Shown piece after piece: positions 4,460-37,575 of a DNA stretch of 60,170 bases. The notes beneath the pieces were generated by a model, which was not told the origin of the DNA, ran no database searches, and saw only the letters and a program-made list of their open reading frames with translations. Position 1 is the stretch's first letter; each line of letters opens with the position of its first letter. The DNA lies in the NCBI GenBank assembly GCA_043815245.1, contig JBDRJD010000028.1, positions 1-60,170 on the forward strand. The letters are read 5' to 3'. The DNA is from an archaeon. GTDB lineage: Archaea > Nanobdellota > Nanobdellia > Pacearchaeales > GW2011-AR1. Position numbers and translations under genes: made by a program.

Positions 4460-4536
4460 CTCTCAACATGAAAATCGGAGATTTTCAAACATTGAAAATT
4501 TAAAAATTAAAGAAAAATTTCCAATATCATGAAAAT
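4460..4536. repeat. Two-hairpin micro-insert flanked by 9-bp direct repeat CATGAAAAT (4467-4475 and 4528-4536)
   Basis: Hairpin TGAAAATC-GGA-GATTTTCA, then an imperfect ATTGAAAATTT/AAATTTCCAAT hairpin. The second direct repeat contains the pheA ATG. Confidence 0.6.
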
Positions 4537-15620: not shown

Positions 15621-15719
15621 TTTATATACTTTGTTAACTATAGTTAACTAAGCACGAGATACCTACGGTTTCTTCTGTAGGATCTTCCCTTAAGACAACA
15701 CCTAGGGCTAACTAAGCAC
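15621..15719 (+). promoter_or_regulatory. TATA box plus palindromic operator plus leader motif, copy 2, with 11-bp direct repeat
   Basis: TTTATA 15621-26; GTTAACTATAGTTAAC 15633-48; ACCTACGG...TTCCCTTAA 15661-93; TAACTAAGCAC at 15645-55 and 15709-19. Confidence 0.75.
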
Positions 15720-33628: not shown

Positions 33629-33670
33629 TTGTAAGAAGTTTTTTAAAGTTAAATTATCTACTTTTCTTAA

Positions 33671-33742
33671 GGATCCGTAGCTCAATAAGGGAAGGGTCCC
33701 TTATCAACCCTCAGACACTGAGGATGTTCGCTACGTATCGAT
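33671..33742 (+). ncRNA. Predicted structured 72-nt 5' leader of pre-tRNA-Lys, beginning with a duplicate of tRNA nt 1-14
   Basis: GGATCCGTAGCTCA at 33671 and 33743; hairpins ATAAGGGA/TCCCTTAT and CCTCAG/CTGAGG; GCTACGTATC is complementary to the repeat; TATA TTTAAA 33642-47 is 23 nt upstream. Confidence 0.55.
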
Positions 33743-33865
33743 GGATCCGTAGCTCAGTTGGTTAGAGCACTGGCCTTTTACAAAAAACTTCGTTTTTTGT
33801 CCTTCAAAAAAACAATGTTTTTTGAAGTAAGCCAGGTGTCGGGGGTTCAAGTCCCTCCGGGTCCA
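33743..33865 (+). tRNA. trnK: tRNA-Lys (anticodon UUU) with 49-nt canonical 37/38 intron (33781-33829); CCA not encoded
   Basis: Full cloverleaf: GGATCCG/CGGGTCC, GCTC/GAGC, CTGGC/GCCAG, GGGGG-TTCAAGT-CCCTC. BHB with central helix CUUU/GAAG and inner A6/U6 helix. Confidence 0.93.
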
Positions 33866-37200: not shown

Positions 37201-37514
37201 GGCAGCCTATCGAGGGGAGGGCCAGAGGAGGAGCTTTAAGATTGGGAGAGATGGAACAGCAAGCACTTGTTGCACATGGTTCTTCTTTATTGTTAAAGGA
37301 GAGATATGATTCTGATAAGGTTGTTGTGCATGTTTGTACAAGATGCGGCTCAATGGCCATTAAAGATGTGATAAGGAATAAGATTACGTGTCCAGCATGT
37401 AATGGTAATGAAATTGAGCCTGTAGAAATTTCTTATGCATTTAAGTTATTATTAGAAGAACTTCAAGGTTTGCATATATTTACTAAATTTGATTTAAAGA
37501 ATAAATACGAATGA
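34248..37514 (+). CDS. rpo2: RNA polymerase subunit Rpo2 (B, unsplit)
   Basis: GGYFIVNG.ER, CP.ETPEG, GDKF...HGQKG, RQP.EGR.RGG.LR.GEME. Confidence 0.97.
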   Translation: MKQDKHIIVKKYLSQHSLVESNIVSFNNFIKLRMQKIVDELSQNLSNDEIEIKLGKVRVGRPNVIESDGSSKNVLPTEARLRNLTYSAPVFLEISIKQEGQIEESQDVEIGRIPVIVRSDVCNTSGMGKDELEKAYIDPLDVGGYFIVNGNERIMVMTEDLAANQPFIEKSKGKLMLRLFSQRGAYRIPVSITETSDGILEISFSRFRNIPAIVLLKTLGMLKEADISRLVGKETDSFIVNLYEFAGVHSVDDAMMFIAEKTNLQGTKKEMVDRVKQRIDSYFMPHIGLTKEDRYEKAITLCKFIKQFYIAKENPNIITDKDHYANKRVRLSGDLLSDLFRVNLNILLRDIQYSLQKIAKRKKFYSLKTIAKSTLFSHRVESAIATGSWIGERTGVTQNMDKTNYLAMLSQLQRVSSMLPGEQENFLARTLHPTHYGRFCPIETPEGTEIGLRKNLAILSRVSTAVKMDEDEFIKILEGFGMLREKEGQKHGKSDVFFNGRFIGSVEDYKKFIGDIRGRRRASQLPIELSVRYDKHIENVIISTEIGRVFRPLIIAENGQVKFTNEHALLLEQDKITWDDLIKQGVIEYLDASEEENALVALGKEEVTPEHTHLEIDHIDFLGLVTSLVPFANHDQSSRLNRGSKTQKQALGIYAANFPVRLDTDVSILHYPQKPIVRSFVYDTLNIYPAGQNLVVAVMTHEGYNMEDAIVLNGGSVARGLGRSTYFRPYTSTELNYAGGLADEISIPSKDTSGYRTEESYRFLEDDGLAYPEAAMKESEVVIGKTSPPKFLSEAREITVRTRKENSSVIRQEEKGTVDAVFVTVEDEGNKVVQVRTRDQRLPELGDKFSTPHGQKGVIGMIADENDIPFTSRGIKPDLIFNPHGIPSRMTVGYLMELLAGKAGAIEGEVVDGTAFAGQPVEELEKQLKAKGFRYDGKETMYNGVTGKMMTAKIYIGSMYYLKLKYMVSNKMHARASGKVALLTRQPIEGRARGGALRLGEMEQQALVAHGSSLLLKERYDSDKVVVHVCTRCGSMAIKDVIRNKITCPACNGNEIEPVEISYAFKLLLEELQGLHIFTKFDLKNKYE

Positions 37515-37575
37515 AAATGAAACATTTTCAAGCATTTAAATTTCGAAAAATTAGGGGGGAAATTTAAATACGAAT
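37502..37575. repeat. Two-hairpin micro-insert flanked by 11-bp direct repeat TAAATACGAAT
   Basis: Direct repeat at 37502-12 and 37565-75; hairpins TGAAAATG/CATTTTCA and ATTTAAATTTC/GAAATTTAAAT. Confidence 0.7.

Follow-up and report, generated by a model that had tools for sequence, protein, structure and literature searches.

A recurrent two-hairpin insert carrying a duplicated tRNA 5' end upstream of the tRNA-Lys(UUU) gene of a Pacearchaeales archaeon

The tRNA-Lys locus and its insert

The DNA analysed here is a stretch of 60,170 nucleotides from an archaeon of the order Pacearchaeales (GenBank assembly GCA_043815245.1, contig JBDRJD010000028.1, positions 1 to 60,170 of the forward strand), which is called the window below. 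It is contig C28 of a metagenome-assembled genome (MAG) of 921 kb with 36% G+C in 45 contigs. The subject is a 72-nucleotide (nt) insert directly upstream of the tRNA-Lys(UUU) gene, built from a duplicate of the first 14 nt of the tRNA, two hairpins and a strand antisense to the tRNA 5' end. The tRNA, at 33743–33865 on the plus strand, is the sole Rfam RNA gene in the window (RF00005, 58.2 bits) and was read as Lys(UUU) with a 49 nt intron by ARAGORN with introns allowed; the same program found no second gene for Lys(UUU) in the assembly. Exon 1 occupies 33743–33780 and exon 2, which does not encode CCA, 33830–33865. Between them lies a canonical 37/38 intron (33781–33829) with a strict helix-bulge-helix-bulge-helix motif, in which a CUUU/GAAG central helix, UA/C and UA/A bulges and an A6/U6 outer helix can be read from the sequence. 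The intron is kept in another genome of the same genus (G035). The gene is flanked by a thioredoxin-like open reading frame (ORF) and a 149-residue ORF on one side and by rpoH/rpoB on the other.

The duplicate of tRNA nt 1–14 (copy 1, 33671–33684, plus strand) sits 72 nt 5' of the real start of the tRNA, whose own nt 1–14 (33743–33756) are called copy 2. Within the window GGATCCGTAGCTCA has two exact matches, one starting at 33671 and the other at 33743; when up to two mismatches were allowed there were still only these two matches, compared with 0.13 expected, and none of 100 shuffled sequences reached two. Copy 1 is followed on the plus strand by hairpin A (33685–33704; ATAAGGGA-AGGG-TCCCTTAT, 8 bp), a CAA linker (33705–33707), hairpin B (33708–33723; CCCTCAG-ACA-CTGAGG, 6 bp), a junction strand ATGTTC (33724–33729; family consensus GGTTC), the antisense strand GCTACGTATC (33730–33739) and a GAT linker (33740–33742), which measures from 3 to about 70 nt in other inserts of this kind. 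The antisense strand is complementary at 9 of 10 positions to nt 2–11 of either copy, and its pairing with copy 1, a decoy 5' end and the predicted transcript start, would form a helix, P1. The most conserved stretch of the two-hairpin module is TCCCTTATCAACCCTC, in the region of the CAA linker and hairpin B. An earlier note on this DNA had described the 14-nt duplicate, the two hairpins and the 9/10 antisense strand, and every one of these parts is present; it had also taken the insert to be unique, which is incorrect, for at least 25 cassettes make up the family that includes it.

No known RNA was recognized in the insert. In a search of Rfam 15 with E ≤ 10 no family scored above chance within 33671–33742, and the tRNA alone gave a score. 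As judged by eye, the junction strands UCA, CAA and AUGUUC do not fit a hammerhead core, so that a known ribozyme was rejected, and no conserved C/D boxes were seen in the leader. The leader has no match to the tRNA model that would suggest an origin from a degenerate upstream tRNA; an extra 12-nt duplicate of the D loop is found only in the tRNA-Ser cassette described below.

A TATA-like promoter box, TTTTTAAAGT, is located at 33640–33649 on the plus strand. Its forms TTTTTAAA and TTTAAAGT lie at −31 and −29 of copy 1, respectively, and the orthologous box is kept in G035. A TTTAWAWA-type box whose start falls between −32 and −27 relative to the mature 5' end precedes about 22 of the genome's 38 tRNA genes, from which it follows that most tRNAs of this archaeon are almost leaderless. 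The box before copy 1 thus has the usual spacing for a tRNA of this genome, and a scan of the sequence between 33650 and 33743 gave no comparable box, in agreement with the earlier proposal that the promoter is aimed at copy 1 and not at the tRNA. The predicted promoter therefore precedes the leader, with none apparent between the leader and tRNA-Lys. Since it remains 5' of the first copy, transcription would start at about 33671 and yield a leader of 72 nt. The same arrangement recurs in the family: nearly all cassettes have a TATA box at the normal distance from copy 1, an A/T box lies about 25–32 nt 5' of copy 1 in 16 aligned cassettes, and in the tRNA-Ile of the same genome the box is at −37 of copy 1.

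A different conserved leader precedes about ten other tRNA genes of this genome (for example C29:10930, C6:7570, C7:182, C31:319, C24:8351 and C17:2070). In it, a box of the TTGATAAA type is succeeded by a palindromic hairpin, such as AGAAAACCGTTAGGTTGTCTTT or GGAACCTTGGTTCC, whose end lies 2–4 nt before tRNA +1, and similar hairpins follow some tRNAs.

Occurrence of the cassette family

The module was searched by BLAST and then with a covariance model (R1) over 401 family genomes. Covariance-model matches were obtained in 27 of the 401, representing 22 genera; in the class-wide sample of 401 genomes they were confined to this one family. In at least 25 cases, in about 20 genomes, a full-length match precedes a tRNA gene by between a few and about 70 nt. 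Different tRNAs are affected in different genomes, the anticodons of some of the relatives' tRNAs having been read by eye. Cassettes precede Ile(GAU) in G096, G162 and G180, a tRNA with nt 1–14 identical to those of tRNA-Ile in G365 and G174, Ile(UAU)-like tRNAs in G072 and G106, Thr(GGU) in G077, G061 and G004, Thr(CGU) in G179, Thr(UGU) in G162, Met in G202 and G277, Arg(UCU) in G077, Lys(UUU) in G164, Lys in G277 and Phe in G164.

Two further cassettes are present in the genome of the window. The one before tRNA-Ile(GAU) (C45:10946–11017) comprises GAGCCTGTAGTTCA, hairpin A, hairpin B, GTTC, GCTACAGTCTT, AT and GAGCCTGTAGCTCA. The other was found by scanning the genome for upstream copies of the first 14 nt of each tRNA and is divergent, being missed by the covariance model. 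It precedes the sole tRNA-Ser(GGA) gene (C20:2188–2275) and consists of the copy GCTCGTATCGCATA (C3U), two different hairpins, a 12-nt D-loop duplicate (TAATGGTATTGC), the antisense strand GCGATA, a linker and the tRNA; despite its different hairpins it retains the TCCCTTCAAC motif. According to ARAGORN, Lys(UUU), Ile(GAU) and Ser(GGA) each have a single gene in this genome.

A search of the full-text literature, which was limited and is no proof of novelty, gave no account of a leader with a decoy and an antisense strand on archaeal tRNA genes. The cassette is apparently an undescribed kind of recurrent tRNA-gene insert.

Covariation and the host-specific antisense strand

The three helices were assessed in an alignment of 27 matches that is model-based, and hence fitted to the model: 92.6% of the cells were paired (76% in shuffled and 38–49% in slid alignments), with double-sided changes in 17 of the 21 pairs. 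In hairpin A 98% were paired and six of eight pairs had double changes. For P1, copy 1 and the antisense strand of 25 cassettes were aligned without gaps. The fraction of paired cells was 78.9%, compared with 69% on shuffling (0 of 500 trials as high as the real alignment) and 21–35% on sliding, and compensatory changes were observed in seven pairs. One mismatch or bulge at nt 4–6 interrupts P1 in almost every cassette.

The sequence of the antisense strand follows that of the host tRNA. It reads GCTATG where the tRNA has A7 (G358 and G072), GCCACTG where it has G9 and A6 (G004) and GCTACG where it has C6 (Lys genes), while its distal part matches nt 1–4 of each acceptor stem. The GCGATA of the tRNA-Ser cassette is the complement of nt 6–11 of that tRNA, which shows that the element does not have the antisense strand as a fixed end. 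With copy 2 the antisense strand forms a near-palindrome: the complement of nt 11 to 1 comes first and nt 1 to 11 come next, in many cases after a gap of only 2–4 nt. Speculatively, this suggests synthesis by fold-back or template switching. The cassette might then be a target-adaptive element, in which a two-hairpin module enters after position 14 while fold-back or a template switch copies the 5' segment of the target once in direct and once in inverted orientation and so rebuilds the gene together with a helix that silences the decoy; or the cassette might act as a kinetic folding checkpoint on tRNA maturation. Either would be a new mechanism for tRNA genes, and we consider this pair of proposals rather unlikely.

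Competing folds of the precursor

The 72-nt leader folded alone gives a closed three-way junction of −27.5 kcal/mol (z = −4.0; 0 of 200 shuffled sequences as good), in which nt 2–4 and 6–11 of copy 1 are paired with the antisense strand and enclose hairpins A and B. In the unconstrained minimum free energy (MFE) fold of the 195-nt precursor the antisense strand is instead placed on copy 2, copy 1 enters the acceptor and D stems, and the insert comes to lie in the D loop. This fold has −73.3 kcal/mol, compared with −70.8 kcal/mol when the productive fold (antisense strand paired with copy 1, tRNA built from copy 2) is forced; the values for the tRNA-Ile cassette are −63.0 kcal/mol for the reverse fold and −62.1 kcal/mol for the productive one. 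The two mutually exclusive folds that had been predicted for the leader are thus borne out and are nearly isoenergetic. The order of transcription should favour the productive fold, since all of the leader has been made by the time copy 2 appears.

Functional copy, 5' processing and splicing

In every case of a difference between the copies, the canonical sequence is that of the downstream one (tRNA-Ile and tRNA-Ser of the genome of the window, G277, G077, G004, G061 and G106). Copy 1 has U11 for C11 in this tRNA-Ile, U3 for C3 in this tRNA-Ser, U11 in G277, U13 in the tRNA-Arg of G077 and U3 in G004; in G061 it has three changes, U3, A11 and C14, the last of which replaces the universal A14, and in G106 it carries four changes.

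Splice junctions were sought at k = 2–14 in five cassettes. No bulge-helix-bulge (BHB) motif was obtained, nor any half-motif with a flanking helix, and central helices of 4 bp arose from palindromes only (AGCU; GAUC, CAUG and UGUA), without consistent flanking helices. In tRNA-Lys a central helix of 4 bp is produced at two junctions alone, AGCU/AGCU (k = 14), which is shared among the cassettes, and GAUC/GAUC (k = 7), in each case with flanking helices of 0 bp. The earlier note had judged the AGCU pairing in the same way, as lacking the flanking helices of a true BHB. A canonical copy 2 and the absence of a BHB together imply that copy 2 is the functional 5' end and that the 72 nt must leave as a leader; since the three tRNAs are encoded by sole genes, their transcripts must mature.

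Both enzymes that had been put forward for the removal of such a leader were looked for in the genome. A match to RNase P RNA was found at C39:15531–15873 (RF00373, full length of the model, positions 1–288, 67.4 bits, E = 5e-19), and there was no match to HARP/PIN_5, by which HARP was excluded as an alternative 5' processing enzyme.

A splicing endonuclease is also encoded. EndA is a single gene of 172 residues with N and C domains, and its best relatives in the PDB include an alpha4 enzyme (1a79) as well as alpha subunits from enzymes of the alpha-beta type (3iey_A and 5x89). Introns in the D arm are known from other archaea (PMC4033280), and non-canonical sites are cut by (alpha-beta)2 or epsilon2 splicing endonucleases (PMC5829648). 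The insert could be a non-canonical D-loop intron, with copy 1 as the true exon 1 and with module and copy 2 removed by the endonuclease, as drawn by the MFE fold of the whole precursor; in G017, moreover, a genuine 37/38 intron contains the module. Against this stand the lack of a BHB or half-motif at any of the junctions searched, the degeneration of copy 1 wherever the copies differ (including the loss of A14 in G061), and the variable linkers and the promoters before copy 2 in some cassettes, which do not suit an intron. We regard splicing at the D loop as very improbable.

Insertion, tandem growth and decay

The tRNA-Lys site of G035 is empty. Its orthologous promoter, 90% identical, runs straight into GGATCCGTAGCTCAGTTGG, the start of a tRNA with the same intron. 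Comparison with this relative, a kind of check that the earlier note had recommended, thus favours its suggestion that the cassette was inserted into an originally near-leaderless tRNA gene and created a need for 5' processing. At tRNA-Ile(GAU) of G035 (L088, C26, minus strand, about 1590–1640) a 43-nt remnant leader is found from which both hairpins have been lost: nt 1–10 of the copy, 21 unrelated nt, the antisense strand CTACAGACTT and AT, with P1 retained. This tRNA-Ile also contains a 13-nt canonical intron that is absent from the genome of the window.

Cassettes are multiplied in several genomes. In G164, tRNA-Lys is preceded by two identical 141-nt units, each with a promoter-like TTGTATACAA at −30, another tRNA by two cassette units and tRNA-Phe by three. 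At least two 88-nt units stand in tandem in G202, and two different modules in G072; in G174 the promoter is present a second time within a 50-nt linker. On its right side the duplication stops at A14 in all cases, whereas its left boundary ranges from +1 to beyond −35 and the repeat length from 14 to more than 35 nt. Modules before different tRNAs of one genome are on average 85% identical, compared with 68% for the same tRNA in different genomes, which points to spread or homogenization within genomes.

The earlier note had drawn three inferences about the insert. The one invoking insertion with a consequent need for 5' processing is well supported by these data, unlike that of a conformational switch or regulator. 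For the latter, the antisense strand would set the amount of mature tRNA by pairing either with copy 1 (productive) or with copy 2, whereby the tRNA 5' strand is sequestered and copy 1 invades the acceptor stem. Such a switch or kinetic checkpoint would be in keeping with two mutually exclusive folds within 1–2.5 kcal/mol for Lys and Ile, with the matching of decoy, antisense strand and tRNA across genera and with the nearly constant interruption of P1 at nt 4–6. It is at odds with the linker length of 3 to about 70 nt, with the duplicated promoters before copy 2 in G164 and G174, which would bypass switching, and with the lack of any evident element that senses a ligand or signal. The cassette is patchy over tRNAs and genomes, is amplified in tandem, decays, and in the closest relative is absent at Lys and reduced at Ile; for these reasons the switch is unsupported, and we rate it as quite improbable.

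The 14-nt direct repeat and the empty site in G035 have the form of a target-site duplication, and the succession of tRNA fragment, insert and complete tRNA is the classic signature of integration at tRNA genes (PMC4033280). The copies could then be attL and attR, or a 14–15-bp target-site duplication left by an integrase-like or casposase-like enzyme, and the 58 nt between them the remnant of an element; the casposase makes duplications of 14–15 bp at the end of a tRNA gene and integrates mini-substrates (PMC5137440), and the tRNA-Leu(UAG) gene of this genome has two downstream copies of its own last 14 nt. A footprint of this type is nonetheless highly unlikely. Many genes contain the same small structured insert, with covarying pairs, and it is therefore no random remnant. 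Cas1 (PF01867) was detected in only one of 49 genomes (G017), and is absent from the genome of the window, so that integration by Cas1 or a casposase was dismissed. An origin from a virus or plasmid was likewise rejected, the exact 26-nt module pattern having no match in the viral contigs of IMG/VR. There are no terminal inverted repeats (TIRs): the apparent pair GTAGC/GCTAC consists of tRNA nt 7–11 and their complement and changes with the host tRNA (GCTATG, GCCAC, and GCGATA in Ser), which removes a TIR-bearing MITE (a miniature transposable element with inverted repeats) from consideration. For transposases one family was compared, Y1_Tnp, which is present in 13 of 27 genomes with the module and in 7 of 22 without it; mobilization by an IS200/IS605 TnpA was discarded for lack of association. 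The genome of the window has one IS200/IS605-type Y1 transposase gene (C33:113–457, at a contig end; PF01797, 98 bits).

Favoured interpretation

We favour, with a probability of roughly 0.6, a hairpin insert that spreads or is homogenized within genomes, enters after tRNA position 14 with duplication of nt 1–14, and is transcribed as a self-closing three-way-junction leader that RNase P removes. At tRNA-Lys, a two-hairpin module of about 45 nt, the antisense strand, a short linker and a second copy of nt 1–14 would have been inserted after position 14, the second copy rebuilding an intact tRNA downstream. During transcription copy 1 would close on the antisense strand (P1) around hairpins A and B, and the resulting three-way junction would free copy 2 for the acceptor and D stems, after which RNase P would be expected to cut at 33742/33743. 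The antisense strand may have been templated at insertion or selected afterwards. Recombination precisely between the direct repeats would account for loss and unequal crossing-over for amplification. The cassettes would thus form a family, within one Woesearchaeales-type family of genomes, that spreads or homogenizes, expands in tandem and decays. The cassette is probably a tolerated, selfish micro-insert, with decoy and antisense strand kept matched to the host tRNA, and not a dedicated regulator.

Several points weigh against this interpretation. The transcription start, the leader and the RNase P cut are all inferred from the sequence alone. The RNase P RNA match, at 67 bits, is under the Rfam gathering cut-off of 84, and Rpp29 was not detected in the MAG, which is 86% complete. 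By nearest-neighbour energies the wrong fold is slightly the better one, with a margin of 2.5 kcal/mol in Lys and 0.9 kcal/mol in Ile, so that correct folding depends on co-transcriptional order and on tertiary contacts of the tRNA. Searches for Y1_Tnp and Cas1 gave no transposase partner. Neither the site-specific antisense strand nor the variable left end is accounted for by a simple mobile element that duplicates its target site. Finally, the uniformity of the module in each genome might just as well have arisen by co-evolution with a binding factor that acts in trans, and this would speak for a function.

Comparison with known systems

Small palindromic or MITE-like repeats of prokaryotes include REP/BIME, the Rickettsia palindromic elements, the Correia elements of Neisseria and the pneumococcal BOX. 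As in such repeats (surveyed in PMC3184786), the module is short (about 45–130 nt), non-coding and hairpin-forming, is present in several copies per genome, lies between genes and in tolerated parts of genes, has short flanking direct repeats and is more alike within a genome than from one genome to another. Unlike them, the cassette occupies one defined site (after nt 14) of essential tRNA genes, where the duplication rebuilds the gene; it carries a site-specific strand antisense to the host tRNA, has no TIRs of its own and has no associated transposase that was found.

With integration into tRNA genes, and in particular with the casposon, whose target-site duplication is 14–15 bp at the 3' end of tRNA-Pro (PMC5137440), the cassette shares a duplicated tRNA end that flanks the insert, a regenerated tRNA and, in Lys, a duplication of 14 bp. 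It differs in that the insert is 58 nt and non-coding, the tRNA's 5' and not its 3' end is duplicated, the left end is variable and Cas1 is absent in 48 of 49 genomes.

Introns have been transposed among tRNAs of the Thermoproteales (Fujishima et al., 2010, as summarized in PMC4033280). There as here, similar inserts occur in different tRNA species of one genome, and in G017 the module is part of a true 37/38 intron. In contrast to archaeal non-canonical introns, the cassette has no BHB, duplicates exon sequence and has a functional downstream copy, so that removal is to be expected by 5'-end processing and not by splicing.

The tRNAs of Nanoarchaeum equitans are reportedly leaderless and made without RNase P. 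Split tRNA halves with complementary leaders are described for the same organism (PMC4033280). Both hosts belong to the DPANN archaea, most tRNAs of the present genome start at or next to +1, and in both a leader strand pairs with tRNA-derived sequence; the cassette differs in that both pairing strands belong to a single transcript, where they shut the leader onto a decoy and involve no BHB that joins halves, and in that RNase P RNA is present.

If the favoured interpretation is right, single-copy tRNA genes in reduced DPANN genomes tolerate, and keep for long, a perfect decoy of their own 5' end in the same transcript. This raises the questions of whether mis-pairing is avoided by co-transcriptional folding or by an antisense lock and of whether RNase P can handle a structured 72-nt leader in an archaeon whose tRNAs are mostly almost leaderless. 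The empty site, the full cassette, tandem arrays, decayed decoys and the hairpin-less remnant would be snapshots of the disruption and repair of tRNA genes, and would bear on the origin of introns, split genes and gene fragments among archaeal tRNA genes. For annotation, decoy and module can mislead tRNA finders and the calling of promoters and transcription starts in MAGs of Woesearchaeota.

Hairpin modules outside tRNA leaders

The unit of hairpin A, CAACCCTC and hairpin B also occurs alone in intergenic DNA, after genes, and in tandem arrays of identical units of 61 or 40 nt. In G017, the tRNA-Ser(GCU) gene (L025, C26:13420–13600) has two copies of the hairpin-A/CAACCCTC module inside its canonical 37/38 intron, with hairpin A directly after the bulge of the 5' splice site and hairpin B before the 3' central helix.

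These occurrences are relevant to the possibility that the leader itself is a functional RNA, the three-way junction released by RNase P or the module of hairpin A, CAACCCUC and hairpin B binding a conserved protein or RNA, with the tRNA genes contributing no more than a strong promoter and a site for processing, in the manner of tRNA-linked small RNAs. That TCCCTTATCAACCCTC is nearly identical in many genera, and also stands free, in the tRNA-Ser intron and in tandem arrays, would agree with such a role, as would one variant of the module per genome, which is expected from co-evolution with a trans-acting partner, and the covariation of all helices. Yet only about 7% of the family genomes have it, the closest relative lacks the cassette at Lys and both hairpins at Ile, the divergent tRNA-Ser cassette has the same architecture with different hairpins, no Rfam family matches and no partner was identified. 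On balance we think a functional RNA unlikely.

In G120, arrays of identical 61-nt hairpin-A units (L023, C18:9070–9370; L024, C11:1–220) abut the start of a gene. The regular 61-nt spacing of hairpin A recalls CRISPR, but the 'spacers' are identical, so that the arrays are a tandem repeat and no CRISPR array. On the opposite strand each unit contains GGAGGT, a 7-nt spacer and a 19-codon ORF (MKWLWNLRVDKGYFPYGGC and a stop codon), which may encode a small peptide in repeated form or may have arisen from the repeat by chance.

Three further inserts in the window, of 52–53 nt, consist of two hairpins between direct repeats of 9–11 nt with periods of 61–64 nt. They are located at 4467–4536 (repeat CATGAAAAT, starting at 4467 and 4528), 15645–15719 (TAACTAAGCAC, at 15645 and 15709) and 37502–37575 (TAAATACGAAT, at 37502 and 37565). 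They have no obvious antisense strand, and one of them shares a TCCCTTA..CAAC motif. One lies at the start of pheA and one at the rpoB/rpoA junction, where G056 has a hairpin-A module.

A mirror-image case is offered by the tRNA-Leu(UAG) gene of this genome (C32:2284–2600), the two additional downstream copies of its last 14 nt being TCCTAACACCCGCA at +112 and TCCTAACACTTGCA at +210, with inserts of about 84–98 nt between the copies.

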